Shown: positions 16,803-55,208 of the stretch, in pieces
How positions within the stretch are numbered: position 1 is the first letter of the stretch
Layout of the letters: every line of letters begins with the position of its first letter
NCBI GenBank assembly: GCA_965153355.1
Contig: OZ231126.1
Span: forward strand, 18,848,001 to 18,912,000
DNA length: 64,000 nt
Reading direction: 5' to 3'
Source: Flaccisagitta enflata
Taxonomy: Eukaryota
The notes under the pieces: model-generated
Database searches by the model: none
Seen by the model: the letters and a program-made list of their open reading frames with translations, nothing else
Told to the model about the DNA's origin: nothing
Position numbers and translations under genes: made by a program

Positions 16803-16816
16803 TTCTCCATAGCAAC
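16803..16816 (+). promoter_or_regulatory. RFX X-box-like motif upstream of lectin copy 1 (equivalents at 19650, 26643 degenerate, 43985, 48518, 54926)
   Basis: ttctccatagcaac, tttaccatggtaac, tcctccgtgccaac, tttaccatggcaac, cttgccatggcaac, atcgccatgacaac. Five of these lie ~75-100 bp before the ATG. Confidence 0.6.
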
Positions 16817-16899
16817 TGCACTGAATTTAAAAACCATCATACACTGTCTCTTTCGAGGCAAAGTATTCAAATCATATTCCCTTCTAGATTAAAGCCATC

Positions 16900-19012
16900 A
16901 TGGTTTTTTTGGTCTACAATTTATCGATCATCTTGGGGATGATCTGCTCCCCAACGGATGCCGTTGCCTCTTCATACTGGGGTAATGATAACAATATCAT
17001 GTCATGATATGTTACCGGGTGAAAGTAACTGATTTGATATGCCAAAGTTCGAACCGTGCCAACTGCATGAATCTTAACGCGAACACGCAATTTTTATGTT
17101 TACCTCCCCGTGAAGCAAACGGTATCTAATAAATTATTTGTTGCTCGTCATACTCCCAATTTTCCGAACACCATCGTTTTTATTTGTGCAAAAGGGAAAA
17201 TATAAACCATGGTTATCTCCGCTTTGTACAGTAGATCTCGTCTAGACTTGAGATAACGGGGGCAAGCATTGTAGAAAAACAAATGAAGCCAAGGGAGTGA
17301 TATTTGAACCATAGACTTATAAAGGGATGCTTTATTGCCCATGATAGCTGGTTGCCATGGAAACACATTTCCATGTATTCACGCAAAAGTATCAATATTT
17401 TGAGAAATTTTTTGAGGGAACATTTTTTAAAATTAAATTTGCTACAACTTTCCCACAGTATGTTCTGTAAGAATGTCGCTCGTTTAGCGGTTGCTAAGGG
17501 TTGTCACACATAGATACGCTCCCTAGCAACGGCCAAACGAGCAACATTCTTACAGAACATACTGTGGGAAAGTTGTAGCAAATTTGATTTTAAGCAATGT
17601 TCCCTAAAAAAATCTCTCAAAATATTCATATTTGAGCGAGAATACATGGAAATGTGTTTCCATGGCAACCAGCTATCATGGGGAATTAAGCATCCTTTGA
17701 TTAATCTATGATCCAAATATTACTCCCCTGGCTTTATTTGTCTTTCCACAGTGCTTGCCCCCGTTATCTCAAGTCTAGACGGGATCTACTGTATCTAGAT
17801 AACTACAAGCAAGCAAAGGATGGAAATTTCTGCCACTTTCATGGAACTGAATTGAATTGGGAAGAAGCGAGAAACAACTGCAAACTGGAGTTGAAAGGAG
17901 CAAAACTCGCCCTTATTGACAATGAAGCCTCCCCCCAAGTTCCACTGTGATCTTAAGAACAAAGAGATCGTACCACTCCTAAACGACAACGAGATGTAAA
18001 TTGAAGGAGGTACATGTCTGTTCATAGAATATTCCTGCTAAAGACAACATGGGATACGTTGTTCCTGAAGCATAGATTTTTTTTTGTTTTTTTTTTTTGT
18101 TTTGCTTGACGTTTCTTGGCGAAAATTAAAAAGAGGGACCTCAGATGAGTGGTCATACACACATTACCAGTTTTCCTATCTCAATATAAGTCTCTGGCTA
18201 GGCGCATCCGACGTAGACAGTGAAGGGGAATGGTACTGGATCGATGAAACAATCGGAACACAAAACTTCTTCTATTAAATGGGACGAAATGCAACCATGT
18301 TATAGAAACACCGAAAGTTGTCTGTTGCTGATTGGCCCAAATGCTCGTTTACGCGACGCACCGTGTGGATGGATAAAAAGTTTCTTGTGTCAACGTTGGT
18401 AGATAAGTGAGCAAGTGAGCATTGCTCATCTTAGCATTCTTTTGTATTTCGCCAACGTTAACAACGAATCAACGATTGTTATCCCCCGTTTTGTATTTTT
18501 CTTAGCCAGTCCAAAGTGCAAAAGTTTTGTTTTGAATTTTAGCCTTAAGATGACAAATTGGAGAAATTTGCTCTCCGCTTTTCGATTAAGCTCTCCAAAG
18601 TTACGTCTTTCAGTCCGTCGTATGTGTTGTCCACGTCCGTAGGCTTTTTTATGACTGCTCCAAACCACTACAGAACCGTGCGGGGGCAACGGCAAAATGG
18701 GCGTATTTGAGAAACATGAAGTGGACCAGCAGCAATTGGAAACAAATGAATTCCTGAGGTACAAAAAAATCATCATTCCAGGCTCTAGAAAATGCTGAGG
18801 CTTTATGAAACTATGATGTCAAAGATGAATCAATTGCAAAACGAATATCCATGACCAATTCTGTTTTCAGAGCGGCCTTCAGCTTTTTGCATTCTGATGG
18901 GCGCATAACTGATGAGAATTGCGACAAAATGGATGTGAAATCTGCCACTTCAGAAGATGGCGTCATCTTCACATTGATTTCTGGGAGTGGAGGAAATCAA
19001 CCGCACACATGA
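16900..19012 (+). pseudogene. Secreted C-type lectin family, copy 1 (frameshifted pseudogene)
   Basis: Exons 16900-16981 (signal peptide MVFLVYNLSIILGMICSPTDAVASSYW), 17799-17995, 18191-18406, 18674-18758, 18871-19012. There is a frameshift/stop near 17940-17950, a frameshift near 18250-18275 and a TAG at 18400-18402. A MITE sits in the intron-1 acceptor region. Confidence 0.85.
17229..17791. mobile_element. Foldback Tc1/mariner-type MITE, family A
   Basis: TA|cagtagatctcgtctagacttgagataacgggg ... ccgttatctcaagtctagacgggatctactg|TA. The whole element is an imperfect palindrome centred at ~17510. Confidence 0.92.
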
Positions 19013-19747
19013 TTGGCTTGTGCAGCATTTTTATCATAGAGGAAAATCGATAGGGGACAAAACCAAGCCAGCAAATGCAATGTCGCTATCACTGATAGTG
19101 TCAGTCCATTACCGTAAATGTTATTTTAAGTCGCAGACACGCAACTCTCGAACTTGCTGTGTCGGTCCGTCGGTTTGTCCGTTTGTCAGTCCATCCGTCC
19201 ATCTGTCAGTTACTTTTTCGAAATGTGAGCGTCTTCTGCTATACTACCTCTGCACACCCATCCACGACTGGACTGGATGCCCATGTGGCGTGCATACGGC
19301 CTTGTTCTTGTTTCACAATCATCAAGATATGATTGGCTAATGAAATACATTTACCGCTTTTTATATCGTCTCTCCGATTTATTTTATAATCAAATTACAA
19401 GAAATGATAACGTTCTTAATAGAGCCTTTATCAAGCATTGCATTCTGCCCCTCGACCTTGCTAGTCAGTTCCTAATACCAGGTATCATCTCCATAAACCA
19501 CCTGCGACCAGGAGAACCGGCCTTCCGGCAAGAAAAAAAGTCTCATATCAGTTTATCATGTTTGTTTTGTAGATGGTAGGCAAAATTGCTGTTGGTTGGC
19601 GCAAATGGCTACACAAACATGAAGCTCTGTGGTCGATTGTTCGACTTATTTTACCATGGTAACTGTACCGCCAGAAAATGTATGAACATTCTAGTTTTTG
19701 AGGCAGAACAAACCAAAACATTTTGTTTTCTCTTGAATGAAGGCATC

Positions 19748-21122
19748 ATGATTCTGGTGCTCTGCAAATCAGGGATCATTTTGATGGTTTTCTGCATCTT
19801 CACCAATGCCGGTGCCTCTTCTCACTGGGGTAATTTCAAAAATATCATAATGTGTCGTAGACTGATATATGGGTTCAGGATACGAGAATATTCAGACCGT
19901 TCAAAATCTTAAAACTGCAAGGGATATTATCTCTATCATTAACATGATGGTTAGTAGATTACAAACAGGAATAACCGGGGGTAAAATACTTTATCGAATG
20001 CGATTGGGCAGACGCAGAGGCAGAAATAGGCGTTTTAAGTTCTCAACTCGAACGATGAACTGATCGATGGACATACGGGGGGAGAATCGGAGGGACAGAC
20101 AGACAAATGGACAGTTCTGGAGTTGGACGAACAGACAGATGGATGGACAAAGCCTCCCCTAGAGTCACTTAGCTCGCAACTTTAGATGAAATAACTTGAT
20201 TGTTTCTTCTGAAAGAAACTATGTCGCTTTTGCTTCAGCATCTGGTCAAAATACTCATAGTTTTTTTTGTTGTTTTCTTTTTTAAAAGATAAGTACAAAC
20301 AAGCAAAGGATGGGAACTTTTACAGTTTCCATACAACTGAGAAGAATTGGACTGATGCAAGATCCATTTGTAAGCAAGAGAGGAAAGGAGCAAGATTAGC
20401 CATCATCGATAACGAAATCTCGTTTCAAGCTATGAATGATCTTGAATTCATTAATCTCGACATAGGACATTGGTAAGTAGAAGTAGAAAGTGATCCGCAC
20501 ACAAAATAGATTTCATTTTGGACATCGGTCTCAATGCCAAATTCAGATCGATACCATCAGATAGATATGAATTTTATAATACTACTCAACTAAAAAAAAG
20601 CCGCACTCTATTATGGGTTGATGAAAAGGACAAAACAAATTATCTGAACTTTTTTCTTTTACAGTGAGTAAACAGATTTAAAAAATTTCTTTCATTCTAG
20701 ACCAATCCCACGTCTGTATCTCAAATTGTTTAGGAGCTAGAGCTTGTCAAATTGATCTCCTGATTTGTAACAAGGCCGGATACACGGCCACCAGTTGCGG
20801 ACGGGTGGGCAGGGGCGGAAATGCGCGTTTTCCCACTTTTCGACTCGATCACCCCAACGGACCGACCAACCGACCGACCGACCAACCGACCGACCGACGG
20901 ACAAAGCCTCTTATAGAGTTGCAACTAAAAATGCATATTTTTAATGGGGTTTCAAAACTGATAATGGCTATTTTTTTTTACTCTTTCTTATGACATTTCT
21001 AAATGAATAAAGCTAGAATTACTAAAAACTGCTAATTCTCTTTATGTTTGTTTGTCACTGTCTGTCTGTTTATTTTTTCTTTTGAATTTCTTTTTTTTTT
21101 TTTCAATTTCTCTCTTTCTCTC

Positions 21123-21220
<98 letters not shown>

Positions 21221-22973
21221 GTAGTGCAATGAGAGTGTAACAAAATTGTATTTACAGGGAATACCGCACCAACCGGGACAAAAGAAAACGACATATTTTC
21301 TCTTCTGAAAATGACAAATTTGATTTGAAAACAGATTCTGGTAGATATCTTAAACCGATTTTATATCATTAAGAAAAATCATAACTGAATAGTACACTGA
21401 AAGCACACGAAAAAATGAAAAAAAAAGCCAAAATTTGACAAACTTCTTGTAATTTTTTCCAAAAATGCGCTGAGTACTTCAATCGTTCACTTCTTTTGTT
21501 AACTATTGCAACAAAGATTGGATTAAAAAACTTGGATTTGTCTTAAATTGAATGGGGAATCAATATAGTTTTATGAAAAAGCTTTAAAAACTGATATCTG
21601 GGTTTCTTTCGTTGAAATTTTTCACTCAATTGAAGAAAAAAAAATCAAAAATCCAACTTTTTCATCAGGAAACTCGGTTAAATTTTCGAAAATTATTAAA
21701 AATAGGCAGTTTAAATGGTAGAGTATGAAACGACATCAAATTATCTATCATTCAAGACCAATCCCAGCATAGTGGCTCGATTTGTCTAGATTTGGCAAGA
21801 GTATGAAGAAATGTTGTTAAAACATCACAATCGCAAATTTTTGCAATTTCAGATTTCATGATTTACATAAGAAGTGATACTAAGGCCAAAGTATTGGTCT
21901 CACCATGACAAAGTTTATAGATAACAAAATCGGTTCTAAAGCTCTCTCTGGAACTGTTGTCAGAATTGATCCACCATTTTTAGATGCAGAGATATGTTGT
22001 TTTCTTTCGTCCCGGTAGGCGGGGTATTCCCTGTATAATTCGTCAACCCGTCTCAATTTAAGCCTTTTGGGAGCATCCGACGAAGACAGTGAAGGGACAT
22101 GGTACTGGATCGATGAAAAGGACGCAAAACATAATGCATCTTATATGCAATGGAACGAAATCGGAGAAAAAAAACAACCAGATGGCGGAGATACACAAAA
22201 CTGTCTGTTGCTCAGAAGGAGTTACTCGACAAAACTTTGGTTTCATGATGGACATTGCAAGAATTCATGGAAAGTCTTGTGTCAACGGCTGCAGAAAAGT
22301 GAGTCCTGACTGGAAAACGATAGAACCCCCTTTCAGCGTGGGTCCCATATACTTTATTGGGGTTTGAGCTCCGAGGCTAGAATTTGACTTTGTAGGAGGG
22401 GTTGCGGAAGTCGGAGAAGAAAAGATTTTCCATAGAGTATTTTCAGCCCCATACCATTTTTGACAGCGGCTGCGGCCCCAAAGGACATGATGTCCTGTGG
22501 AATACCCTCTGTAGAATACAGGGCGACTTCCATTCGTTCGTTTGTCTGTTTGTTTATTGGCCAGTCCCTCCTCTTTAATCAGCCCTCACAGGCTCCAAAT
22601 TAGCCCTCTTAAGTCTGAAATCAGCCCTTCAATCATCTTCAGAACCGTGCGGGGGCAATGGCAAAATCAAAATGGGCTTATTTGAGAAACTTGGAATTGA
22701 CCAGCAGCAATTGGAAACAATTAAACTCCTAAGGTACAACGAATCGTCATTACGGGCTCTGGGAAATACTGAGGCAGTATAAAACTACAATGCCAGGGAT
22801 GAATCAAGTGAATTTCCATTCCTAATTTCAGAGCGGCCTTCAGATTTTTCCATTCCCATGGGAGCATGGCCAATGAGAATTGCGACAAAATGGAAATGAA
22901 ATCTGCTACTTCAGAGGATAGTGTCATCTACACGTTGATTTCTGAGAGTAGAGGAAACCAACCGCTCAAATGA
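19748..22973 (+). CDS. Secreted C-type lectin (QPD motif) with novel C-terminal domain, copy 2, ~244 aa
   Basis: GT-AG exons 19748-19829, 20289-20472, 22063-22298, 22643-22733 and 22832-22973 join in frame (735 nt). Signal peptide, NWTDARSIC...GARLAII, LLGASD..EGTWYW, QPD, NCL, FHDGHC, VLCQ, then PCGGNGK...ENCDK. Confidence 0.88.
20581..21030. mobile_element. Truncated copy of the 61181 MITE family, with a nested reversed HINE-like element (~20769-20928)
   Basis: TA|ctactcaactaaaaaaaagccgcac matches the 61181 terminus, and internal sequence resembles 61570-61720. Confidence 0.55.
21255..22033. mobile_element. Non-autonomous TIR element with TA target duplication, in intron 2 of copy 2
   Basis: ~55-bp imperfect TIRs: cagggaataccgcaccaaccgggacaaaagaaaacgacatat / atatgttgttttctttcgtcccggtaggcggggtattccctg, with TA on both sides. 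Confidence 0.85.
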
Positions 22974-25860: not shown

Positions 25861-26729
25861 CATTGAGTGATCGAAATGCGCTATATGCGTGGATGAAATA
25901 TAATCCTTTGGGAACCATTTTTGCATCGACGCGTCTTGTCGCGTAAAGCCAAATGAAATGGCCTAATGGAAAAACTAGGATTGAGGAAACAATCGCGCGT
26001 GCGAATAAACTGAAGAAAGTGTCATGTAATGTTTGTAAGCAGATAGCATCCTAGCGATAAATGTGAGGACACCTGCAACTGAAAATATTGTTTAGTCTAC
26101 TTAAAAGGTCTCACTTCTAAAAATGAAATACTGAAAAAACTAAATTAGTCACATTTAGAAAACTGTTGATATTTTTTTTCATGGTACATAACAGGTTATC
26201 ACATTGCTTTATTCCTTATTTGAGAGAAGATGAAGAAGCAAATAATCTTTGAAAGTGGGAATTTTTTTTTTAGTGATTTTTATCAGAGTTTGAATAGAAA
26301 TCAGGAAAAAAATACTTTGATATATTAAATCTTACATTTTTGATATCATAAATAGCATCTATCGTGAATGACACCAGATAAAGGAGTGCTCACAAATCAA
26401 AAAGGGGCGCTTATTGGAGGGTTAGATGACAATATCTTTTTTCAATATCAAAAGCACCCGCGGCGCTAATAAAAAAACAGTATTTCCTTTTCTCCCTAGG
26501 ATATAACCTACATTTTTACTAGTGACCTGTTATCTGGAGCAACAATTTTCCAAAGATTTTTGTTTTCGGGTTGTCCTCATATTTATCGGCAAGGAAGTAG
26601 AGACGAAACCGATGTTCGTGTTTAAACTTTGTTATCGATTATTCCTCCGTGCCAACAACTGCAACAGAATTTACTCTCGCATATTAAGCAGAGTATCGTG
26701 AATTATTTTCCACAAAAAAAGAAGTTATC

Positions 26730-29700
26730 ATGATAATGATAGCTTACAGATTGTCGATCATCTTGGGACTGATTTGCATCTCAACAGATGCCATGGCCGA
26801 CTCGAACTGGGGTAATTATGTCGCGTGGTGCTTCCGACTGATGGTTTATTTTTTGCGTTTTACATCGATCGTACGAAATAATTTAGGAAAAAATGACATC
26901 TGAGCTGAGTTTATAACTCTATGCTTTGTGAAAGCTGGTCCATGAAAATAGTTCTATTGCAAATACAGAGAGCTCATTTATCTATCTCTTTTGCATACTC
27001 TTACAAACAAGCTGACGATAAAAACTTTTATCATTTCCATTCATCTGAGAAGAATTGGGAGGCTGCGAGGTCGACCTGCAAACAGGAGCAGAGAGGCGCA
27101 AGACTCGCCATCATCGACAAGAGTATTTCCCTGCGAGCTATAAATGACAACAATTTCTTACCTCTCAGTAACAATGACATGTAAGTAATGGAAAAGGGTC
27201 ATCTGCGCAGGATTTTTTTCTACAATTCCAAACATGATTGTCACCTACCATTATTTGTTGTTTTACCATAGCGTCAATAGAACTGGCCGATTTTTAGATG
27301 CGTCATCGCATCTCTATAAGAGGGTCTGTCCGTCCGTCCGTCGGTCCGTCCGTCCGTCCGTCTGTCCGTCCGTCCGTCCGTCCGTCCGTCCGTCCGTTAC
27401 GCCTCTTCTAATATCAAGCAGATGACGCATCGAGTTGCCCAATCCGGCTTGTTAGCTTCATATTCCATACACAGAACCAAATGCAAGGTATTTTGAAGAG
27501 CCTCCAAAACATTGACAATTTCGCTCAGTTTTTAGTTGCGGACACGCAACTCTATCAGAGGCTTTGTTCGTCCGTCCATCCGTCCATTGGCCCGTCTATC
27601 TATGGTGATTTAGTGTGGAAAGCTCTAGAAACCCGGCGAGTTTTGATAACGTTATGTATTGGTGCAGGTGAATAAAATCCTTCTTTTTTTAATTTGAACT
27701 AAAGTGTATGGTTGGGAGCATCAGACGCTGAGATAGAAGGGGAATGGTACTGGATGGATGAAAACGATGCAAAACAAAATGCTTCTTCCATTCAATGGAA
27801 CAAAGATCGAAAACAACCAGATGGCGACAAGAGGGAAAATTGTCTGATGCTGAGAATGTTTGGTTCAAATGCTAAATTGCACGACGGAAATTGCGAAGAT
27901 AAACGAAAGTTCTTGTGTCAACGTCTACAAAGAGGTGACAACTGACCATTCTGTCAGGATTTGGCGTTGAAAAAAAAAAAAAAGAAACTGCCGCCCTAAC
28001 TAGTAAAAAACGCAACTATGCCTATGGTTTGTTTTGTTTCCTTGATATAAAGCAAGTTTTTAATTGAAAAAAAAAAAGTTTTCTTTAAGAATACAGTGGC
28101 AGTACTGATCAGGAAAGTCTTTTATGCTGGGCGTTATGTAAAATTACTCAAGGAAATGTTTTGTTTGTTTTTAGTCGCGGACACGCAACTCCTTACCTTG
28201 CCGTGTCGGTCGGTAGGTCGGTAGGTCCATTACAAGTTTCAAGGGATTATTACATTACGGCTCCTGCCCAATTGTCTGTGACTGTCGTGCCGTGTATCCG
28301 GCCTTCTTTTCATTTACTCCTCTCCATCGTACAATAAAAGTAAAATTCTTCGGCCAAATTGTCAGGCACCTTACATTCTGTCTACCACGCGTTTAAAAAA
28401 AAAGACGCAGCTGGTCATTTATTGATAGAACAGACAAAAAAGATTGTTAAAAAATTTTTCCATTGAAAGTAATTTAAAGATTTTCTTTCAATCTAGACCA
28501 GTCCCAGGTCTGTATCTCAAACCGTTTAAAAGTTACAGCCAGTCAAAGACAACTAGTATTTTAAGCACTTGACAAAATTAAAAAATCATTTAAAAAATCG
28601 TTTATTTGTTTCTTTTTCTTAGGAAAATACTTAAGAAAAACTTTCAACCATTTTTCAGTCAAAGTAATTTTGAAGATTTTCAAATTTTCTTTCATTCTAG
28701 ACCAATCCCAAGTCTGCATCTCAAACGGTTTAAAAGTTATAGCTCATCAAAGAGAAACACTGATTATCTTGAATTCTTCTTCTCTTATGGAATTGTGAAA
28801 ACGTTTTTTGTCTATTTTTTCTCTATTTTTACTACGCCCAAACGCCTCAAGATTAACAACTTTTTCTTTTTCATTCTCAAAGCTTAAGAACTGGGCTTTT
28901 TAATAGTGCAAAACATTCAACTTGAAATCAAAGATTAAATAGCTAAAATAGTCATTTAAAAGTGCGTCTTTTTAGTCGCGGACACGCTACTCTACACCTT
29001 GCCGTGTCGCTCCGTCGGTCCGTAACATTTTTGAAATGTGAGTGGTTTTTGCAATACTGCTCCTGCCCAACCGTCCGCGACTGGATTGCCGTGTATCCGG
29101 CCTTGTTTTTTTTTATTCGCGTGGTATCAATACATCAATGATCTATGTGCCCAAAGAAAAGTAACTACTTTTAATTTTTTGAACACCCGTTGTCCGCGCT
29201 TACTATCGCTATCTTTGCCGGTGGCAGGAGTAGTTCAGAAACGTGAATAGACGGTCTGAAAAATGTTTTATTTGTAAACAATTAGTAAACGTTTTGTAAA
29301 CAAACGGAAATTTATATAAACAAACGTGAGCTTATCTAAACAAACAAACAAAAACAAACATGAGGCTATGAATGTTTTATACCTGAAAAACTTCTACAAT
29401 TGTCCAGCTTTTACAGTAATCGCGGAAATGTTTAATCGTAATGAAAATAGTAATGATTTTAATCTGAAAGAGAAAGAGAGATATTGATTAGTAAATGTTT
29501 TCTTCCTTTACCGTTGACGCAAAAAGAAAAAAAAAGAATTCACGCGTGTATACATCTTAACCATCGTCCATACATTCTAAAGAAAGAAATATGAATATTT
29601 GCGTAATTTTTTGCCAATTTGCCGCTTTGAGAAATAGACGCGATTCAAATGCGCTCAAGGTGAGTAAAACGAGCAAGTTTCAAAAAGAGGAAACAAATGA

Positions 29701-32700
29701 TCAAGGCATGTACGCGGAAGCGGCCACACCCCCCACTTTGACCACCCAGGGTCAAACGAGGACAAGGACAAGGACACAAACCTCCATCCCATAAGCCCAA
29801 GGACATACGCTTGCACTAACCAAAACAAAAGGCGTAACGGGCAAAGAAAAAAGGGGCTAACTTCCATACAAAATGAAAAAGCTAGTTAGGAATGAAAAGG
29901 TAAACGCCAAATGGAAGAGCCACTTATGAATGAATAAAGTATTCAGTTATGAAAGCGCTACATCGAAAATGCCCTTCTTCAAAATGAAAGAGCTTTCTCA
30001 AAAATGAAAGAGCTAATTTCGGAATGAATAAATTAATCAAAAATGAAATAGTTGCGTCAACTGATTCATTTTTCGTGAATTGAAAAACTAATACGCGATG
30101 GAAAATTAAAGGGAAAAAAGATTCTCTCTTTCCACTGATTATGAACGGAAAAAATTTGCTGGACAGATACTCGTAAGGATAAGGAATGACGTGAATGCTT
30201 GGGAGGCGAAATAAGTAGAACAGATACCCATTTACGCAAAAACATTACTTCAAAGAGAATAAGTGATGTTAATTAAAGGCGAAATAAGTATAAGAGATAC
30301 TAATTTGCGCAAAAATATAAACAAAAAAAAAACAGTAATAATGAACGACGTAGTGAAAAAAAAGCTTTCCCTTACGCAAAACATTACTATCGAACTTTTC
30401 CCCTCCAATCCCCCCCCCCCCACGTGTACATTCTCGTAAATTATCGAAGCAAAAGTCCCATGGAGAGGCGCAGTTTGACGACGAAGAGGAAGACGTGGGT
30501 GAGGCGAAAGATAGAAACTAAAATCTGAGTTGAGAGATGGACGTCGTACCTATCACAAGAGCGGCGTCGTATCTATCACAAGAGCTCCGACTTTTTATCA
30601 CAAGAGCTCCGACAATTTATCACAAGAGCTCTGACGTTCTATCACAAGAGCCAATTTATTTTCTGTCTTTCACTAATTCTTTTTCAAAACTCGAGGATTA
30701 TTTCACGTTGGTGAATTTGAAATGAACACCTAAATAGTCAGTAGAGAGAATAACTCTAATCTATCGAGAAGGAACTAAAAAAGAGGGAGAGTAAGAAAGA
30801 GACAATGAATCAATATCTAACACGTGAAAACGTCGTCTTGTTGTCGATGAGAACGGAGAGAGAACCGCGAATTTAGTTTTATTTTTACTTGGTAATGCTC
30901 GTCGGTTTGGCGGATTTGCTTCCACCGGGCGCCAACTGTTCGTCGACGGCTTCAAGGAGGACGAGGCTATTTACGTGTCTTTCCAATTCTTTTTTCTTTT
31001 TCGTACCGAGGCGTACACGACGGACGTTGCCTTCACGATCGGGGAATGTTTCGATGATGCGCGCGAGATTCCACTCGTCCCTCGGCGCATTTTCGGCGAT
31101 GAGAACAACGTCGCCAACGGCCACGTTGCGACGTTTACCGGTCCATTTCCGGCGTTGTTGCAATGACGTCACGTATTCGCGGCGCCACCGCCGCCAGAAG
31201 GCGTCAACGAGATTGCGAACGTGCCGCCAGGATTGGATGAGGATGCGTGGCGGTAATTCCGACGACGGCGGCAATATTTGAATCGATTCTGTTGCCACCA
31301 CGCCAGGATGTAGAAACGAGTTTGGAGTGAGAGCCTCGAAGTCGTCGGGGTCCATTGACACTGACGTAATTGGGCGTGAATTGAGGATGCCCTCAGCAAC
31401 GACGACGAGCGTGTGGAAGGCGTCGGCGCCGACCTCGTGTTTGTCGAGAAGGGCGTAAAAAACTTTCTTGAACGATTTTACCAACCTTTCCCACATTCCA
31501 CCAGTGTGAGGGGCGGAAGGGGGGGAGAAGGTCCATTGAATGCCTTTTGCCGCAAAATCACCGTTTATTCTTTCTCTCCACTTTTCCACTTCTTCTCTTA
31601 TTTCTCTTTCACCGGCTCGGAAATTCGTTCCGTTGTCACTCACTAAATGACGGAGGCCGGGATGACGGGCGTGGAAGCGGGAGAGAGCGTTGATGAATGA
31701 ATGGACGTCAAGGCCATCAGTTACTTCACAATGGATGGCTCTTGTTGCGGCGCAGACAAAGAGACAGACGTATCTCTTATGATGGGCTCTGCCTCTTGAT
31801 TTTATTAAGAACGGGCCGCAAAAATCGACTCCTGTTGAGGCAAACGTATGAGAGGCCGAGACGCGATATCCCGGAAGTGGCGCCATTTGTTGTTGCATAA
31901 CTGCGCCTTCATCGCGACGACAACGGAGACATTTTCTGAGGGCGCTGCGGACCGCGGCGCCATCCTGAGTGATCCAGACAGACTGACGGAGATTCGCGCG
32001 CGTGTGTTGAATTCCCACGTGACCAAAGAGATGATGATAGTGAAGAATGAGCAGCGGCGTTATCAGATGGTCGCGTGGGAGGATGATTGGATGATTGGAT
32101 GTAATCTTGCCATCAGTACGTCGGTGAATCCTGCCGCCGACGCGGAGAAGAGGAAGATTTTCATTTTCATCATCAAGATAAGGAGAGAGAGAAGAAATCT
32201 TTGACTGCTTTGCCACTTTTCCTTCCCTCTTGAGAGACGCAAATTCTGCCGCAAATCTCTCCTTTTGGAAAGCAGAAAAGATGATTTTATTCACATGGCG
32301 ATAATCAGAGGCAGAAAGAGGACGGCAGATCTCTTGTTTTATCGCGGCTGTCGTTGCTTTTTCCGACTTTTTCTTCAAGTAAAGGCTGAAACGACGAAGG
32401 ATGTTGATTCTTTGAACTAACTTGTTCCATGATGAACAATACTGAGCCAGTTTAAGAACAAAAGGATTCGGATTAGCATTGAGTGTAGAGGCGGCGATCG
32501 TTGCTTCGACATTCTCCTCTTTCTCCTCCTCCTCCTCTTCCTCATCATCCTCATCGATTCCGAAGGGGCAAACTGGCCATTGTTCGGGCGGGAGAAGGAG
32601 AAACGATGGCCCGTTTTGGAATATGTTCCAATTCTCTTCGTCATTGGACTTAATTCCACGTGACCCTATATCAGCAGGGTTAATTTCACCAGGAACGAAT

Positions 32701-35700
32701 CGAACTTGAGTGGGGGAAATCACGTCGAGGATTTTGGCCACTCGATTTCTCACAAACGTTTCGAGTTTGAGGCGAGGATTGACGATTTGCCTGATGACTG
32801 TAGAAGAGTCGGTCCAAAAGGTGAAACTTTCCATCGGTTCTTTGAAGGCTTCACTAATCGTCAATGCCATGTCTCTTGCTTTGACGACGCCGACCAATTC
32901 AGCGCGGGGAGTCGAACCGTGTAGACAACTAGTCTTTTCATTCCCAGGGATGACATGAGATTTTGCCGTCACCAGACGAACGTGGGTGACGTTCAGATCA
33001 TCAACGAATCTAACATAACAAGACGCTGAGATGCCCACCTTACTGGCGTCGGAGAAGAAGAGGAACCGTCTTTTTGCATTTTTGGCCAGTGAGTGACAGC
33101 CAATCCATCTTGGAACTTTCCGATTGACCAATGTGGGGACGGAGAGAAACCAATCGTTGAAAACTGTCATTTCACCTATGGGAATTGGATCATCCCAACC
33201 AAGTTTGAGCTGGCCGAATCTTTGTAGCTCACGTTTTGCAATGAGGGTGAATGGCGACTTCAAGCCAAGTGGGTCATAAATTGAATGGACCAATCCTAAG
33301 ACTTGGCGGCGGGTTGTGGGCGGATTTTTCAAGTACTTTTCCGCGACTTCGGTTGAAAACACATCTTCTTCAACCTCGTATCTCATTCCTAAAGCATGGT
33401 CGATCAATTTGGCATCTTCTTCTCTGGATGCGCGGAACTTCTTGACAGATTTAGCCACTTTTTCTTTGGGAATAGCATCCATGATTTTCTTGCTATTGGA
33501 CAGCCATTTGGAAATATGAAAGCCGCCGCGGCTGCAAATCTGGGTCACTTCTTCCATCAACTTTAAGCCTTCTTCTTCTTCCTCAATGCTCTCGACAAAA
33601 TCATCGACATACATATCTTCCAATAGGGCAAGAATTGCTTCAGGAGAGAAATCAGCAGCATTGTCCCGAGCACATTGTTGGAGAGCAAATGTTGCAACAG
33701 AGCTCGATGGTTTGGCGCCGAATAAATGCGCGGCCATTCTCAAAATTTTGATGATTGACCCTGGGTCACCCTCCCAAAAGAGGAACCTGAACGCATTCCT
33801 GTGCTTCTCTGGTAGCTTGACGCGCATAAAGAAATCGCCGATATCACCCATAAGCGTCCAAGGATGCTGCCTAAAGCGCAGCAAAAGATGCAGCAGCGGC
33901 GCAGCCAAATCTGGGCCTTTATAGAAAAAGTCGTTGAGGCACCTCTTGAGAGTCCTGGCTGCACAATCGTGGGTGATTCTGCGCTTCTCAGGCTTCCTTT
34001 TGTCTTGAGTGGGGTGGAGTGGGATATAGAAACAAGGCTGATCGTCGGGAACATTATTCACATCCTTGGGATACTCCCCTACCTCCTCAGCATATCCCTT
34101 CTCCACCAGAAGATTAACATGGGTCTTAACCATCTCCCACTCGGCAGGGTTGTTGGCTAATTTATCACCCAAGCGAATCAATCGGCGGTAGGCAGTGGCG
34201 GCAGTGGGAATTTCTTTCATTTCCTCCACCACTTCTTCATGAGGTTTGTTGAACACCGCATCAACTTGGTATTGACCATCAACCAGTTTGACAGAATCTT
34301 GCATGATCTTGAGAGCTTTCATGTCTTCAATTGAATGCTTTTCAGATTGTTGCCGCTGATGAGACTTTGCTGTTGGGGTTGAAGGCTCCCCCAAACAGCC
34401 CTCGTCTTGCTGCTGTAGAGTAGTTTTTTGTTTTGGGAGGATTGGGCCTCCAAAAACGTCTTCAAAACTCTCCATCTTCTCTGACTCAAAGACAAGATTC
34501 ATTTTCTTATTGAGTCGCGCATTATCAAAAGTTGTGAAGGCCACAGAAAACTTATTGGCCCTGGCTTCATGACAAGTTGGGCCAGCTATCGACCACCCCC
34601 AATAAGAACAGTACGCCGAAGGCTTGTCTTCTGTACTTCTTCTGACAGACCCATCTTCAGGCAACATGGTGAAAGCTAAATCGGATCCAAGCAACAGCTC
34701 CACTTCCTTGGGCATGGGAGACAGTTCATGGATTTTGACATCTGTCAAGTGTGGGTAACAGCTCACATCTGCCTGTCTTGGGACTGAATCAATGTCCATG
34801 GGGATACGATCAACAACTACAGCATTTGCAGCAACAGAGTAATCTGAGAAGAGAGACTTGAGTTCAACAGAACAGAATTCACTCTGTACCCTTTCAGCAC
34901 TCTTCAAAACTGTGTTGAACTCAATGTTGCATGGCTCACAATCTATGTCCATTTCTGAGGCTGTTCTTTTGATGATACAACTGCTGTCTGAGCCCTTATC
35001 AAGCATGGCAAGGACGTCACGTGATTCACCACTCTTGGGGTTGAAAATCTTGAGAGCAACAACTGGACGGAAGACTTTCTTGGAGCTATTTTTGGCAGAA
35101 GCATTGAAGACTTGGCTCTCTTGGACTTGAATTGCCTCATTTGTCTCTGCAGCAACTTCAGTCTTGATTGCTGCAACAGAAGAAGTCGATTCTTTTCCCT
35201 TTGCTGCATCTTCAATGCTTTTCTTAAACTTCTCCTTCTCTCCTTCGTCTTTCCGTTCTGCTACAAACTCTCGAAACTTTTCTTTCCCGTCTTTGTCCAA
35301 GCAGATGAGACTGTGGTGATAATTGACCCCGCAACTGCATGTAACTTGCATTGGACACCCCTTTGAACTGTGGGTACGTGAATTGCAACACTTGAAGCAA
35401 ACCCGTTGGTCATAACAAAACTTGCGTCTTTCTAAAGCGGGCATTTTCTTGAATTCAATGCAGTCATATAAATTGTGCATTTGGTTGCATTTGGCACACG
35501 GTGCTCGCCCTTTCCGCTTTTGCGTGTCTTCATTTCCTTTGACTGAAGAGGAAGAGGAAGAGTCACCAATTTCACCGGCGGCGATGGAAGCCTTTTCCGT
35601 CTTGACTTTTTAGAGATGAGGAATTACTGATGGCTGTTGGCATGCTGCAGATGGGAGATGGTAAGCAGGCGTTGAGTAAGAGGATGCTACAGATGGTCGT

Positions 35701-43547: not shown

Positions 43548-43609
<62 letters not shown>

Positions 43610-44095
43610 AACGCGCAGGCGCACGTGGAATTGATTGGATTGATTTGAGCAGAAAAGGTTTTAATAGTCTGAAGGAGCCTTCTATAGATCCGAATCCAGG
43701 GACATAGTGGCTGTAGCTTCCATACAACCATGCTCCCATACTACCAGAAATGTCTTGCAATAATGTCTCGCACTGATCGCAAGTTGCGATTTGATACCAT
43801 GGCAGTCCAAAGCCATTATTTTGCCCTCCTTTATTGAACATACGTATCGGAAACTTCATAAAAGAGGAGACAATAGCTAATGGAAAGATAATGGCTAAAC
43901 TGGAAAACGTCTTGTATTACCCACCAATGTTTTTTCAGTCGCAACCAAAATTGAGGCTCATATTTCAGCAGTGTTATGATTTGTTTTACCATGGCAACCT
44001 CAAATCTCCGCAACGGAGTGTATTGATTTTCCAATGCCCACTGCCCAGTCAAAATCTCATTCGTGGCGTTGTGGCTTTCATCACCGACGGAAGTA

Positions 44096-47000
44096 ATGAT
44101 CACGATATCACCAAGATTGGCGGTCATCTGCAGCGTGGTGTTGATTTACTGTTCAGCGTTTGTCGTCGCCATTGAACATTGGGGTAACAGCACCAACGAA
44201 TTTGCCTTAAAATTATACTGCTTTCGTGTGCTTGAATTCAAGATTTGCCCTTGCGGGAAAAAACAAGTGAACGGTATAGACTTCGCTAACATCACCCTAC
44301 TATCATGTTAAAGCAACTTCTTCCTCAAAGAGTTTTTCAGTTTTCAAATTATTCATATCAATCAACTGTAGAAACAAGATGTTTCACCTCATCAAAACTG
44401 CTATTCGCTAAACAACTGTAAATTTCTATACCTTATCCATGCAATATTTTTCTTATTGTTTCCCTACAAAGAAAATTTCAAACAAGCGGACGATGGAAAT
44501 TTTTATCATCTTCATGATTACAAGAGGAAATGGGAAGACGCAAGAACCATTTGCAAACAAGAGCAGAAAGGATCAAGACTCGCCATCATTGAAGATGAAA
44601 TTTCTCTTGAAGCTATGGAAAAAATTGTTGGCATTCCCGGCAAACAGTGAGAAACCGTTGTAATGAGGTCAAACAGGGCCAAGTCACGTGCGGGTGGGAA
44701 GGGGCAGTGATGTAAAAAGCTAACCAAGCATTTGGGCTGGGGCAGTGCTGCGAAAACCGCTCATGAATACAGTAGATCTCATCTATACTTGAGATAACAG
44801 GGGCAAGCACTGTACGAAAACAAATGAAGCCAGGGGAGTGATATTTTAAACAAAGATTAATAAGGGGGTGCTTTATTGCTCATGATAGCTGGTTGCCATG
44901 GAAACACATTTCCATGTATTCTCGCTAAAGTATCGATATTTTGAGTGATTTTTTTAGGGAACATTGCTTAAAATAAAATTTGCTACAACTTTCCCACAGT
45001 ATGTTCTGTAAGAATGTCGCTCGTTTAGCGGTTGCTAGGGGTTGTCACACATGGATACGCTCCCTAGCAACGGCCAAACAAGCAACATTCTTACAGAACA
45101 TACTGTGGGAAAGTTGTAGCAAATTTTATTTTAAACAATGTTCCCTAAAAAAATCTCTCAAAATATTGATACTTAAGCGAGAATACATAGAAATGTGTTT
45201 CCATGGCAACCAGCTATCATGGGGAATTAAGCATCCTTTGATTAGTTTAGGATCAAAATATCGCTCCCCTGCCTTCATTCGTCTTTCCACAATGCTTGCC
45301 CCCGTTATCTCAAGTCTAGACGAGATCTACTGTACCAAAAAAACAGTGTTATGAACCAACCAATAGACCAACGCGATGGATAGAGGGATGGATGGACGGA
45401 CCAACCGACTGACGGACATAACGGGTTAAAGAGCCGCGATGACGCTATTGAAAAAGACTTTTGAAAAGGCAACTTTATCAGTCACAAAGCAGCGCAGTGC
45501 AAAAAATGTCGAATTTTCCTATTTCGACTTTTCAAGGGTCTTCTTGGGAGCATCGGACATGGAGAGTGAAGGAAAATGGTACTGGATGGATGAAAATGAT
45601 GCAAAGCTGGATGGTTCCTCTATTCAATGGCGCGCTGATATGCCAAGAAGCGAGGAAAAGCAGGACTGTTTGGTGCTGAGTGAACAATCACAACTGATTA
45701 CAGGACAGTGCACTTGGAAGAGAATATTTTTGTGTCAGCGTCAGCAAAGCAGTAAGAAAAGTGCATATGACGCACTGAAATTTAAGTAAGAGGAATTTAC
45801 CCAGAGAACTAAGTTACCATTCATGTTACTATTTTTGCTTAGGTCAATGCTTGTGTTTATTTTTTTGTATTTCAAATTGTAAAATTACATGAGGAAACTC
45901 ATCTGTCACCGGCAAAGAACAAAAATGCAAAAAGATTGAAAAATATTCAAATCTGATGCGATTAAAAAGTGAATAAAATAGTGACAATCATTTCAATAAC
46001 TGCTCACTGAAAATTTTAAATTTGCATAAAAAATCCAAATATCATTAAAATAAGAACATAGCGCCCTCAGTTGATCTGTTAGGAATCGCGCTATGTTTTT
46101 GTTTTCTTGATATTTGGATTTTCTATGCAAATTTAAAATTTTCAATGAGCCATGGTCCCTTGACAAAATGAGTTTTTTGTTGAATTTGGCATATTTTTTC
46201 AGCTGTAAAATAAAGGATTGAAATTTAAAACTGGCATATGCAAGTCAATTCATGCAAAATATGGTTGTTCGTAGTTTTATGAAAATATTAAAACAAAAAT
46301 TTTCATTAAATTTCATTTTATAAATTTCATGACTTATCTAGCTCGGGTAGCAAATTCTATGGTAATTTTCAGTGCGTCATATCGATGATCAGTGTCGCAT
46401 TTTAAAGAAATAACTCACTTATACTAAACACTATAAAATTATACTTACATATATATAAGGTTGAAGAATGAAGATAGCGTCACAGGTTAGCATTATGTTT
46501 TCTGTCTTGTACTCAAACAAATCCGTTCTTACCCACCCATCCACGACTGAAGGGGAGTGTATAGTATACGGCCTTGTTTTTCATGGATGTGGAAAGAGAA
46601 ATACGGTGAGCAGACACATTCTAATTCATGAATGGCGTCGCTTGATAATGTGGTGGTTTTTAGGAGCCTCTTATACTCGCGCTTCTACTGATGCGATTAT
46701 TATTCCAGTACCCGTATCTTCAATTGATCAGCCTGCATATTTTCATCGATTACGCCTCTCAGGACCATGCGGTGGAAATGGCAAAATCAAAACCGGCTTG
46801 TTTGAGAAGAATGGAAACAACAATCGTCAATCGGAGACAGTTGATGTCTTCAGGTACAACAATAAGGTCAAGATGGCCAATATGTGCGCTCGTCATTTTT
46901 CAGAACATGACCAATGGACCGACTAACATGACCACATACCTTTTACGCATATGCAATTGATTATGCATGTTGTACAAAAACAAGCCTGATCGGGCAACGT

Positions 47001-47702
47001 CCTGAATGTTTCTCTGCGGGTATTGACTTTGACGCTAGACATATGAAATATATTAAGGCCCTCAATTTGAGGAACAGATTGACGGGCATACAGATAAAAA
47101 GACAGAGTATCAAAAAAGGCTCTCAAAATGCCCTAATGAAAGTTTGGTTTGCAGCTGAAAAGGGCCGAAAGCTACAATTTTTGAAGAGGTGTAATGGAAC
47201 TAATAATGGATGGACAAGTGGATGGACAAATGGATGGACAAATGGATGGACAAATGGACTCTCTCTCTTATGGAGAATAGAGATGCGAGGACGCTTCGAT
47301 CTAAAAAGTGATTGGTGTTTTGGCACCAAGAATCTATCTCAGCCATTACATCTCTTTTTAGTCGCTTGATAAGCGACTCTACACGCCGCTTTGTCCGTCT
47401 GTTGATTGATCCCCAATTTGCTTTTTCGGCGCTTTTGAGCTTTTTGTGCTCACTGCTTCTCCCCAAATGCCCTAGTGACCTTTTCTATCACTGCTATTGC
47501 CCACCCGCATGTGACTGGGGTAGTAATGTATCCAACCTTGTTCAAGCTAAGGGTACTCAACCAATTTCATTTCCCCATTTACAGAACGGCATATGATCAT
47601 CTTCGCTCTAATGGAAGCCTGCTGAACGAGAATTGCGACAAAATGAATGTGAAATCCACCAAATCGGAAAATGAAGTTGACTTCAGATTGATCATTTCTT
47701 AG
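44096..47702 (+). CDS. Secreted C-type lectin-like protein (non-canonical MPR motif), copy 4, ~228 aa
   Basis: GT-AG exons 44096-44183, 44472-44646, 45537-45751, 46763-46853 and 47585-47702 are in frame (687 nt). Four CTLD cysteines, VFLGASD..EGKWYW, C-terminal PCGGNGK...ENCDK. Confidence 0.88.
44770..45332. mobile_element. Foldback MITE family A, nested in a reversed HINE-like element in intron 2 of copy 4
   Basis: TA|cagtagatctc...gagatctactg|TA, highly similar to 17229-17791. Confidence 0.92.
45768..46379. mobile_element. Non-autonomous TIR/foldback element in intron 3 of copy 4
   Basis: TIRs tgacgcactgaaa / tttcagtgcgtca flanked by TA, plus an internal inverted repeat at ~46002-46150. 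Confidence 0.7.
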
Positions 47703-48620
47703 GAGGGCAAACGCTAATCAGAATTTAACAGCTCTTGATGGGTTTCAGCAGGGGAGAGGGAGGAGGGGACTTTGACATTAATTAAGTAATGAAAATGAAG
47801 AGGAACGACGAATGGGTGAAATAGAAGTCAAATTCCGTATGCGTTTGATTTGTACTTTCAATTTCTTTGATATATGCATCATGAGGTTCAGATCTCATGG
47901 TGGCTGGTTTTTTATCCTTGCTGTTGTCGGTGAGCAAGTCGAGTTAGGCGAAAAAGGGTTAAGCGAAAAAGAGTTAAGCGAAAAAGGGCCGTAAGATAGC
48001 GATAGGGGGTCCGTTTCTTCCTTTCCTCTGTACTACGCTGGTCAAGATCCCTTTCTAAAAGGAGGTTAAAGAAAATTAGTACTTTTTAGTCGCGTGCTAC
48101 GCGACTCTACACCCCGCTTTGTCGGTCCGTCGGTCCGTCCGTCGGTCCGTCCGTCCGTCGGTCCGTCCGTTGGTCCGTCCGTCCGTCGGTCCGGCACACT
48201 CTACTTTCTCGGCGTATGGGTTTTTTTGCTATACCGCTCCTGCCCAAATTCTCCACTGACCTCAAATATGGCCCCTGCCCACCCGCACGCGACTGGGGTA
48301 GCCGTGTATCTGGCCTTTTTTACGAGAAGGAAGATAGTAGCAGGATTTTCTGTTTCATGCCGAAAAAAGATGCAGGGAGGAGAAAATGACAGGCGAAAAA
48401 AGTGAAAACAGTTTTCATAGTATAATTTGCTTTTACCGCGGCAAAAGCAATCAATTATTCCACCAAAATTTCTTCTATCTCATAGCATTTTACATTCTAT
48501 CTTCTACAATCAATGTTCTTGCCATGGCAACAATTGCAACAATTCTTTTCTCAATTACTAAATGGCTCAGTCAGACTTGATTTTGTGACAGATTCCGCAG
48601 TTTCAATCTATTTCTTCATC

Positions 48621-52193
<3,573 letters not shown>

Positions 52194-52298
52194 TGATATG
52201 GGAAAGTAATCACTAGAATGAATGGAATTTTCTATTTTAAACACCTTTCTCTTGAGGCAAGAGAGGATAAGAGAGGATAAGAGAGGATAAGAGGATAA

Positions 52299-53275
52299 TA
52301 ACAATGGCAAAAAAAAACCGGACAGTTACTTCTTTTACTCATAAATCCTTTGAAAATTCACCCAGCGTGCTGAAATTTTTACTGAAGTTACCTTTTAGTA
52401 TCATTAAGCATCACTGAAAAAAATCAATGACCTGCTTCAAATAGTTTGAGAATTATAGATTTTTTAAAAGTGCTTGCCAGATGATCAGAAATTCAATCTG
52501 CACACATAAGAATTTACAAAAAAAGAATAAACAAACTTTAAAAAAACATACTAAATCTAGTCCGATTTTGATGAAATTTGAAGTGGAAGTAGACCACAGC
52601 GTAAGCAGGCTGTGGTAAAAATTTTACTACGAAACTCCATTTATTTTAGCAGAAACGGCAAGTTTTCCTAAACTTTTTTTACGGTTATAAGAATGAAGTA
52701 AATGAAGATGAAATCCAAAATATAAATTGATGCTAAAGCCGTAGTTTTTAACCAATTATCATACTTTTTTAACTGGTGACTTTTGTACATATGGTTCATC
52801 TCCAGTAAAATTTTGGTGAAGATTGAAGCATTTTTAGACCCCCAAATTGCAGAAATATTTCTACAGGTGGCTTAATATTTCTTATCCTGAGCAAGCTTAC
52901 AATCAAGCAATATCTACCCCACTAGACTTTATCTGAGTAGGAGCAAATTTTGCCTGGTATTAGTAAATAACACCATCAGACTACAGTTCAAAAATCATAA
53001 CAAAACTCCCAAAACCTTTTGCACAATGTCAGTTTTACTAAAAATGGAATTATTTTGATGAAGGATAAATGTCATCTCTGGCAGTCAAAAAAAGAGGTGA
53101 CTTCAGTAAAAACGTGATTACGGCTGAAGTATTCAACGGATTTTGATGAAATTTGAACCACACATAGTCCAAATCATGGTTATCATTCACTGTAAATTTT
53201 ATGCAAATTGGTCAACATCTTCATATGTTTTTGCTCTCTCAAAATTTGTCCGGTTTTTTTTTTTTGCCATTGTTA
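52299..53275. mobile_element. Non-autonomous TIR DNA transposon
   Basis: TIRs taacaatggcaaaaaaaaaccggaca / tgtccggttttttttttttgccattgtta. The TSD is ambiguous (TA or GGATAA). Confidence 0.75.
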
Positions 53276-55208
53276 GGATAAGAGAAAAGATCAAAAAGAT
53301 ATTACACATGCTGACTATGCATGATTACTCACCCATTTTCGAGTGCAAGAGATAATTCAAGAATACACTGTTCTATTGATACAGTTTTGTAGTTGATGTA
53401 GGTAATAGTTTTTGTATTCTTATGCAACTACACGGTGAATAGAAAATGCAATTGGCACTACTATTTCTATCTATGCTGCCGGTACATTTGGTGCTTTTGT
53501 AGCGTGGGAAAGACTAGTTTTAAGCAGGCCCAACATTGAAATCAATGAAAAGCTAAATTAGAAAAAAGTTACCTGTTGAAATACCAGTAATGGCGACTAT
53601 TGCCGACCGGTAAAATTCGTTAGGGTGGTTTTTGTTTTGTTTTTTGTTTTTTTGTTTTTTTTTTCAAATTCTTCTCTCTCCTCATTTCATTTTTTTTCTC
53701 TCCTCGTTTCATTTTTCTTTTCTCTCTCTCATTATCTTCACAGAAACATCACTATTGTTAGGAGGAGACAAGTGCTTGATAGAACAAGGTCGGATACACG
53801 GCTACCGAAGACGCGTGCGGGTGGACAGGGGCCATATTTCAGGTCACCAGACCATTTGGGCAGGAGCAGTGAGGTCAAAGAAATAAAATCATAAAAAGAA
53901 GTTAAGTGTGACCGACCGACCAACAAACGGACGGACAAAGTGGGTTGTAGAGTTGCGTGCACGCGACTAAAAAACGTTATTGATTACCCATCTAGTACGA
54001 CCTGCTTTGAACGTGCTTCCTTGAACTTGAAGAAGCCATACTGAACAAATTATTCGATGGAATAGAGGACAAAGGAAAACATTCAATCCAATCTGCTGAC
54101 ATTTTGTTAGAGAACCATTATCGGTTTGTTATCATTGTTGCATTGATTTCTTTGTCCACGCTAACCGCTGCCACGGAACTCAAATTTTTCGATTGCCAAA
54201 TGCTCAGTCATGATTCCCTTCATAGAAGGCGTTTAACTCATAAGTGTATGGCACGGAATATCAAAGGGCTGTCGGCAACCGCTTTCAAGTCCGACAGTGC
54301 TTCACGCTTGACAAGGTTTGCTACTTATTCAGTCTTTTTTACTCTTAAATCATATTCTCGTGTGAGAAGTGGCAGCCTAATTTGATAGAAAAACACACGT
54401 TTTTTCTCACTCTTCTCTAGAGTGTTTTGTTATGCTGCAGTTTTTCTTTTTCTTTTTTTTTTTTCTATCTTTTTTCATTTTTTGTCTTCTTTTTCTACTT
54501 GGCCTTGAGTCCGACAGGGATGTAAGTCCGACAAACAGTTGGCCGACGTCCCTCACATCCGTCCCTGTACACCCATAAGTTTACGTTTTTTCCTTTTTCT
54601 CGTGCTCTTGTCGGAGATGGCTTACAAATTTTTCCTTGGGCCCCCTGCGTCCGATTATTGAGCACACCAACCACTGAGAGAAATGACGATAAGAGGAAAC
54701 GCGGTCTCAAATAAACAGAAACGTGATACACGCGATCCGCCTCGTTTGTAAACTAAGGATGCGGAAGCAATCGATTCCATTGCTTCCGCTCCATTTTGCG
54801 GTTTCAAATACTAGTAGCTATCTCACCCACGATACTGGAACCACTTCCCAAATCCATGTAATACGTGGTCTATATCGACGTTCATGCCATCAAACTTCCT
54901 TCAAACTTCGGTGTTTTATCGATCAATCGCCATGACAACCAATGCGATGAAATTTAGTCGTTGCCAAATTCAAACACACTCTCGTCCGTGGCAAAGAACC
55001 TGGAATGATTTCTTTTTAAGGACAGAAATAGCTTCCATGAAATGCCTTTGAATCGGAATTAACTTTTTGCTACGCAGACAAACACACTATTGGCGAACGG
55101 TTTCAAATTTGAATGTAAGGAAAATCACATCGTTCTTAACAGCGTCATATTTTCGGTTTCTGAGCAACGCAAAACGTCAACTAAGTCCAAGTCAAAGAGA
55201 GAGAAATC

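Follow-up and report, generated by a model that had tools for sequence, protein, structure and literature searches.

Six tandem C-type lectin genes of Flaccisagitta enflata carry a shared 14-nucleotide element upstream of their start codons, referred to here as the box, which is probably a proximal promoter module maintained by selection and which may tentatively be regarded as a variant X-box, as opposed to a canonical X-box, bound by a transcription factor of the RFX type. The genes lie on the same strand in a stretch of 64,000 nucleotides (the window) taken from contig OZ231126.1 of assembly GCA_965153355.1, positions 18,848,001 to 18,912,000 of the forward strand. They are numbered here as copies 1 to 6, and a tblastn search with exons 2 and 3 of copy 4 returns six sets of hits. 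Each gene is laid out in three exons, of which the first encodes a signal peptide and the other two are C-type lectin exons, and the six are likely to share their regulation. The boxes are listed below, with distances to the ATG counted from the start of the motif and with scores on a nematode X-box matrix whose maximum is 23.6 bits.

Box of copy 1: positions 16803 to 16816, plus strand, TTCTCCATAGCAAC, 97 bp before the ATG at 16900, 13.9 bits
Box of copy 2: positions 19650 to 19663, plus strand, TTTACCATGGTAAC, 98 bp before the ATG at 19748, 13.5 bits
Degenerate box of copy 3: positions 26643 to 26656, plus strand, TCCTCCGTGCCAAC, 87 bp before the ATG at 26730, -1.2 bits
Box of copy 4: positions 43985 to 43998, plus strand, TTTACCATGGCAAC, 111 bp before the ATG at 44096, 15.9 bits
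Box of copy 5: positions 48518 to 48531, plus strand, CTTGCCATGGCAAC, 103 bp before the ATG at 48621, 16.3 bits
Box of copy 6: positions 54926 to 54939, plus strand, ATCGCCATGACAAC, 283 bp before the ATG at 55209, 17.8 bits

The orientation of the box is identical in all six copies: it is on the coding strand and its GCAAC half is the one nearer the gene. In five of them it lies 87-111 bp before the ATG. An initial annotation made from the letters of the window had already named the four 14-mers at 16803, 19650, 43985 and 48518 as well as degenerate copies at 26643 and 54926, and all of these are present where it had placed them. The distances to the ATG that it gave (~85-100 bp, and ~270 bp for copy 6) agree with the 97, 98, 111, 103 and 283 bp above if they are counted from the end of the motif, and the peptide DLFYHGN, which it had dismissed as motif DNA, is indeed the translation of the box of copies 2 and 4 in two spurious open reading frames (ORFs).

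The pattern YTNNCCATRGNAAC matches the window only at 16803, 19650, 43985 and 48518, each time on the plus strand, which compares with 0.20 expected matches, and none of 100 shuffles reaches four. Because this pattern had been chosen after the sites had been seen, an unbiased de novo search was run on 350 bp of upstream sequence from each of the six genes, looking for the best ungapped block to which every sequence contributes one site and using 40 dinucleotide shuffles as the null. At widths of 10 and 14 the search returns exactly the annotated sites in all six promoters. The block of width 14 has an information content of 13.65 compared with a null of 11.61 (standard deviation 0.25, maximum 12.20; z of about 8), a value that none of the 40 shuffles reaches, and the motif finding against a shuffled background that had been suggested with the initial annotation thus recovers the same 14-mer throughout.

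The box also stands out in a MAFFT alignment of the upstream regions that was anchored on the motif and spans -150 to +125. The top 14-column window of this alignment is the box itself, with a mean pairwise identity of 0.72 compared with 0.24 overall and ~0.5 in the next-best blocks, and the motif is hence clearly more conserved than its flanks, the opposite of which would have undermined the initial annotation. The paralogs share 37-68% protein identity in exons 2-3 and, when pooled, an identity of 0.49 (111/225) at four-fold degenerate coding sites; judging from this divergence they are old, and the box is more conserved than their silent positions. The simplest explanation for a non-coding 14-mer that is conserved above silent sites and keeps its place and orientation is a selected cis-element. 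No orthologous lectin loci were found in the protein and contig collections, and conservation of the box was thus compared among paralogs only.

It follows from the common ancestry of the six promoters that six occurrences of the box are not six events, and the boxes of copies 2 and 4 are identical at 13 of 14 positions, both of which would fit a box without function that persists as an ancestry remnant, was spread as a short gene-conversion tract or derives from a foldback repeat in the window (see below), where the same core is abundant. Such an absence of function is nevertheless improbable. The identity of the box is well above that of both the upstream columns and the four-fold sites, and conversion tracts of 14-30 bp at the same spot in five genes would be unlikely. 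The promoter boxes were also considered as fragments of the foldback repeat, but this origin was rejected since the homology between them ends at the 10-14-bp core.

The resemblance of the box to the X-box can be expressed quantitatively. The loosest X-box consensus described for Drosophila is RYYNYY N1-3 RRNRAC, and it is accompanied by five tighter forms, all starting with R or G (Laurencon et al. 2007; PMC2375033). In C. elegans the 31 validated X-boxes given in Table 1 of Chu et al. have 26 G, 5 A and no pyrimidine at position 1 (Chu et al. 2012; PMC3245922), a tally that covers these 31 sites; fuller X-box lists may hold sites with a pyrimidine there. The same table places 30 of the 31 sites at -60 to -285 from the ATG (PMC3245922), and the distance of the lectin boxes from their start codons is typical of this range. 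The matrix used for scoring holds the counts from 30 validated C. elegans X-boxes of fourteen bases, and sites sampled from it have a mean of 18.5 bits and a standard deviation of 3.4, with the 5th percentile at 12.4 and the 25th percentile at 16.5 bits. The boxes of copies 4 and 5 are near-optimal at 13 of 14 X-box positions. Compared with G, a pyrimidine at position 1 lowers the score by ~7 bits, and without this position copies 1 to 6 score 18.9, 18.4, 3.7, 20.9, 21.3 and 18.6 bits, respectively, from a maximum of 21.6. In the whole window 15 positions reach at least 13 bits, compared with 1.23 per shuffled window.

The base composition of the box is in keeping with this picture. CC occupies positions 5-6 in all six copies, the spacer is AT in five and GT in copy 3, and the inner 12 bases of the boxes of copies 2 and 5, when read from the sequence, are perfectly palindromic, as expected for a dimeric binder. 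The 3' half-sites of copies 1 (AGCAAC), 2 (GGTAAC), 4 and 5 (both GGCAAC) fit RGYAAC and that of copy 6 (GACAAC) fits RRNRAC, so that five of the six match one form or the other. The statement that every copy retains a strong 3' half-site does not hold for copy 3, where GCCAAC fails RGYAAC.

Two further X-box-like palindromes, both with G at position 1, are found in the lectin promoters:

Positions 26529 to 26543, plus strand: a 15-bp canonical X-box-like palindrome, GTTATCTGGAGCAAC, with a 3-nt spacer, at -201 of copy 3
Positions 55156 to 55168, plus strand: a 13-bp X-box-like palindrome, GTTTCTGAGCAAC, with a 1-nt spacer, at -53 of copy 6

The form GYTRYY N1-3 RRHRAC occurs at eight non-repeat positions in the window, two of which are GTTATCTGGAGCAAC and GTTTCTGAGCAAC, and the enrichment of these additional sites in the lectin promoters is marginal (~0.06 by a rough Poisson estimate). 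X-box-like words are also present outside the lectin promoters, namely ATCCCCATAGCAAC (16.1 bits), which lies within a short inverted repeat at 63587-63620, and ATTTCCATAGAAAC (15.3 bits) at 38614-38627.

The strongest X-box palindromes of the window reside elsewhere, in a foldback repeat of ~570 bp that resembles a miniature inverted-repeat transposable element (MITE) and has 273-nt arms that are 88% complementary. It occurs four times:

Positions 17223 to 17794, no strand assigned: foldback (MITE-like) repeat in intron 1 of copy 1, with arms that carry GTTGCCATGGAAAC / GTTTCCATGGCAAC
Positions 44768 to 45334: copy of the repeat in intron 2 of copy 4
Positions 59816 to 60393: copy of the repeat
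Positions ~13927 to 14190: partial variant of the repeat

The arms hold eight X-box palindromes, each of which is GGTTGCCATGGAAAC or a one-base variant of it. They score 17.0-23.6 bits, a range that includes the matrix maximum, and at least 20 bits on the better strand. The X-box is among the two best-conserved 14-column windows of the aligned arms (0.94 compared with a mean of 0.64), and the few substitutions seen in it are confined to positions 9 and 11, both of which are degenerate in the X-box consensus. The initial annotation had overlooked these eight stronger palindromes in the four copies of the repeat. The arm palindrome might be a site for a transposase or else a mobile supply of RFX sites, and a literature search found no paper that connects the X-box or RFX with transposable elements or MITEs. 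A mobile element with perfect X-boxes would offer a ready test of regulatory rewiring driven by repeats.

Several observations weigh against RFX as the factor that reads the box. Position 1 of copies 1 to 6 reads T, T, T, T, C and A, which is a pyrimidine in five of six compared with a purine in 31 of 31 validated sites. Only the box of copy 6 passes RYYNYY N1-3 RRNRAC and RYYVYY N1-3 RRHRAC, the other five fail all of the published forms at position 1, and none of the six passes GTNRCC N1-3 RGYAAC. The presence of three different bases suggests that position 1 is not under selection. The site of copy 3 is degenerate, and at -283 the box of copy 6 lies away from the location near -100. The six promoters are paralogous and so are not independent samples, and the matrix by which they were scored is that of a nematode and not of this organism. 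Near-perfect X-box palindromes are moreover common in the window by way of the foldback repeat, a source that need not have anything to do with lectin regulation, and shuffled sequences understate the frequency of X-box-like words. Last, the conserved unit is wider than the 14-mer, and the TCGAT part of it described below is not explained by RFX alone. The claim of the initial annotation that the box resembles an X-box thus stands for an element that is fixed in position and orientation and near-optimal at all but one base in two copies, but position 1 fails the consensus in five copies. The leading G of the consensus is absent from all six, as had been noted, but copy 6 has an A there and thereby an allowed purine. 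Alternative registers with a spacer of 1 or 3 nt were tried, and none of them brings back a purine there.

The sequences that make up the wider unit are as follows:

TCGAT box of copy 1: positions 16795 to 16799, plus strand, 8 bp before the 14-mer
TCGAT box of copy 2: positions 19633 to 19637, plus strand, at -17, with 8-9 extra bases intervening
TCGAT box of copy 3: positions 26635 to 26639, plus strand, at -8
TCAAT of copy 5, in place of TCGAT: positions 48510 to 48514, plus strand, at -8
TCGAT box of copy 6: positions 54919 to 54923, plus strand, at -7

Copy 4, which is an open copy, has TATGAT instead. TCGAT is thus present in four of six promoters compared with a background of 0.0204 per 25-nt window, which corresponds to a binomial probability of 2.5e-6 if paralogy is ignored. 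The upstream regions had been described as otherwise diverged, and this is borne out by their overall identity but has to be qualified by TCGAT or TCAAT near the box in five of six. Downstream of the box, a stretch that resembles TGCAAC is found in copies 1, 3, 5 and 6. A decayed second copy of the module can be discerned ~70-90 bp upstream of the box of copy 5 (48431-48480), where TTTACCGCGGCAAA is followed by AATCAATTATTCCACC, the latter being similar to TATCGATTATTCCTCC of copy 3.

The fixed spacing of TCGAT in four promoters and the TCAAT of a fifth, the free variation of position 1 and the downstream TGCAAC-like stretches would all be accommodated if the box were a selected promoter element read by some other factor or complex, and its likeness to the X-box the outcome of partial convergence. 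Examples of such a reader would be a multi-finger protein that spans all 30 bp or a protein that recognises both TCGAT and the CCATGG palindrome, and TATCGATA and ATCGAT resemble the DRE/DREF and CUT/ONECUT sites. This alternative is a real contender, though on balance a rather unlikely one. No other family that we could name recognises TTGCCATGGCAAC, copies 4 and 5 fit the X-box matrix near-optimally at 13 of 14 positions, and the open copy 4 lacks TCGAT.

The remaining interpretation of the box concerns translation and draws on the state of the genes, which are listed here with their exon 3 coordinates and with the sugar-binding triplet as assigned by alignment:

Lectin copy 1: positions 16900 to 18396, plus strand; exon 3 frameshifted, with the foldback repeat ending a few bases from the exon 2 acceptor
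Lectin copy 2: positions 19748 to 22309, plus strand; all three exons open; exon 3 at 22064-22303; triplet QPD
Lectin copy 3: positions 26730 to 27945, plus strand; without the usual exon 2 acceptor AG, with an in-frame AG 27 nt upstream; exon 3 at 27706-27930; triplet QPD
Lectin copy 4: positions 44096 to 45789, plus strand; reads open, with the foldback repeat inside intron 2; exon 3 at 45538-45786; triplet MPR
Lectin copy 5: positions 48621 to 51636, plus strand; reads open, with an intron 1 of 2 kb; exon 3 at 51106-51336; triplet QPT
Lectin copy 6: positions 55209 to 56098, plus strand; reads open and is the most divergent copy; exon 3 at 55880-56086; triplet EPN

Copy 1 is probably a pseudogene, and copy 3 is of uncertain status, with an in-frame AG that may stand in for the lost acceptor. 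In a scan that covered single exons, exon 3 of copy 4 matches Pfam Lectin_C (PF00059) with 28.6 bits, above the cutoff of 22.6, while exon 3 of copy 5 by itself stays below the cutoff with 20.4 bits. EPN and QPD are sugar-binding triplets of C-type lectins. The differences in the triplet among the paralogs suggest that carbohydrate specificity has diversified or been lost. Exon 1 of all six copies ends in TGGG and is followed by GTAA, with the intron in phase 1 (for instance at 16970-17000, 19815-19835 and 44180-44190). In the last exon of copy 5 the usual stop is missing, and the reading frame continues through a perfect (GA)96 microsatellite at 51336-51636. The family appears isolated in the collections searched. 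A search with exon 3 found no relatives among longer proteins, a profile of five exon 3 peptides matched just two short unnamed proteins of 83 and 86 aa, and a scan of metagenomes gave one locus with a weak match over 30 residues in which the motif is absent. Five marine metatranscriptome runs contain 0.06-0.13 of the words sampled from 43900-53899, and a raw polyA run was listed as well, but such shares are evidence of neither expression nor habitat.

In the open copies 2, 4, 5 and 6 the core of the box contains an ATG with a purine at -3, followed at +4 by G in copies 2, 4 and 5 and by A in copy 6, whereas the impaired copies 1 and 3 have ATA and GTG in its place. The core could accordingly be read as an ATG of strong context (ACCATGG or GCCATGG) that lies in the 5' untranslated region (UTR) and starts a short upstream ORF by which translation of the lectin is damped. 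This is very improbable, slightly more so even than a box without function. The frames run for 9, 11, 18 and 39 codons and the peptide common to them is no longer than M-[AVT]-T, while the CAAC after ATGG, the TT before CC and the TCGAT box are left unexplained. AT is, furthermore, the usual spacer of X-boxes as described in a preprint on C. elegans (10.1101/2021.02.03.429678). More ATGs are located between the box and the main ATG, three in copy 2, one each in copies 4 and 5 and six in copy 6, and as this is unusual for a real 5' UTR it argues that the stretch is not part of the mRNA. Several of the start codons are preceded at 10-25 nt by a short pyrimidine tract and AG, an arrangement that would fit a 5' UTR intron or a spliced-leader acceptor.

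The 14-mer is probably the core of a proximal promoter module of ~30 bp that consists of the TCGAT box, 2-3 bp and then TTnnCC-AT-GGCAAC, and that most likely sits just upstream of the transcription start, outside the mRNA. The module probably dates back to the ancestor of the lectin genes and was retained under purifying selection as the other upstream DNA diverged, and as a transcription-factor binding site it most likely co-regulates the tandem lectin genes. An RFX-family winged-helix protein is the best single candidate for the factor. The intact half-site RGYAAC on the side of the gene may provide its anchor, with a weaker hold on the distal half-site that lacks the purine at position 1.

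The further step to cilia is a much longer one. The initial annotation had regarded the genes as a lectin battery of ciliated cells, which must be considered unlikely. RFX factors are described as active in immune, gut, testis and neuronal programmes as well (PMC5838959), and according to the Drosophila study an X-box upstream of one gene does not predict dependence on dRfx, although prediction is improved by conservation among homologous promoters (PMC2375033). More elaborate, and at the lower end of the same improbable range, is a scenario in which a lineage-specific battery of secreted lectins with diversified triplets (EPN, QPD and QPT) is wired to RFX through a weak X-box variant and the TCGAT co-motif, so as to mark ciliated sensory or other RFX-expressing cells, with the foldback repeat serving as a mobile reservoir of RFX sites that disperses its near-perfect X-box palindromes in pairs, also into lectin introns. 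No paper that links the X-box or RFX to C-type lectins was found in the literature searches made. If RFX does drive the lectins, secreted carbohydrate-binding proteins would enter the RFX target repertoire, and the genes would point to an RFX-positive cell type, sensory or other, from which lectins are secreted onto a surface or into the surrounding water. The case also illustrates how an X-box may be tuned by a deviation of one base, here the pyrimidine at position 1. If another factor reads the box, it would still be a clean and compact promoter module of a co-regulated lectin cluster.

The rest of the window contributes one mobile element and a short conserved block:

Positions 30885 to 37196, minus strand: BEL/Pao retrotransposon between copies 3 and 4, with an open pol frame of 1574 aa and an upstream frame of 528 aa

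The pol frame comprises Peptidase_A17, RVT_1, Integrase_H2C2 and DUF5641 domains, and its nearest Atlas clusters are mostly arthropod, which is a weak lead. If the host were an arthropod, a group in which cilia are limited to sensory neurons and sperm, the version of the battery with ciliated epithelia would no longer hold. The conserved block of ~100 bp can be read as ...PCGGNGKIK.GLFEK... and is found after copies 1, 2, 4 and 5 and once after the retroelement (18559-18762, 22639-22747, 38148-38253, 46759-46814 and 51783-51899). It has no Pfam or Rfam match, and its possible identities include a small exon, a short repeat and a 3' element. Among 22 other long ORFs scanned, Pfam identified only the BEL/Pao retroelement, along with a CDC45 match far below the cutoff, and Rfam and tRNA scans of the window were empty.

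Among the known systems the canonical RFX X-box (GTNRCC N1-3 RGYAAC), as found in the targets of DAF-19 and dRfx, is the obvious standard. The lectin boxes share with it the imperfect palindrome of 14 bp with an AT spacer, the RGYAAC-type 3' half-site (five of six), the CC at positions 5-6, the location at most 300 bp from the ATG and the conservation across homologous promoters. They differ from it in the pyrimidine at position 1, which is seen in five of six compared with none of the 31 validated sites, and in the additional TCGAT box. The canonical targets are ciliary genes, whereas the genes described here encode secreted lectins and not components of the cilium. The TCGAT core directly upstream of the 14-mer in four of six copies is reminiscent of the DRE (TATCGATA) and CUT-type ATCGAT sites, but copies 4 and 5 lack the CG. 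RFX5 is not known outside vertebrates. The half-site X-box represented by the JASPAR RFX5 matrix MA0510.1 combines a strong GCAAC half with a weak partner in the same way as the lectin boxes do, and half-sites of this kind are described as being used by RFX factors outside ciliogenesis (cited in PMC5838959). Subset-specific, non-structural genes such as klp-6 and cwp-4 are driven in C. elegans by X-box variants that respond to DAF-19M, as described in a preprint (10.1101/2021.02.03.429678). Many of these have a 1-nt spacer while the lectin boxes keep the 2-nt AT, and their dependence on RFX was demonstrated by mutagenesis, whereas that of the lectin boxes is a prediction from sequence. Like the lectin boxes, however, they are non-ideal X-boxes with most of the activity in one half-site and a proximal location (-90 to -56 in cwp-4), and the DAF-19M variants are the nearest precedent for the element that precedes the lectin genes.

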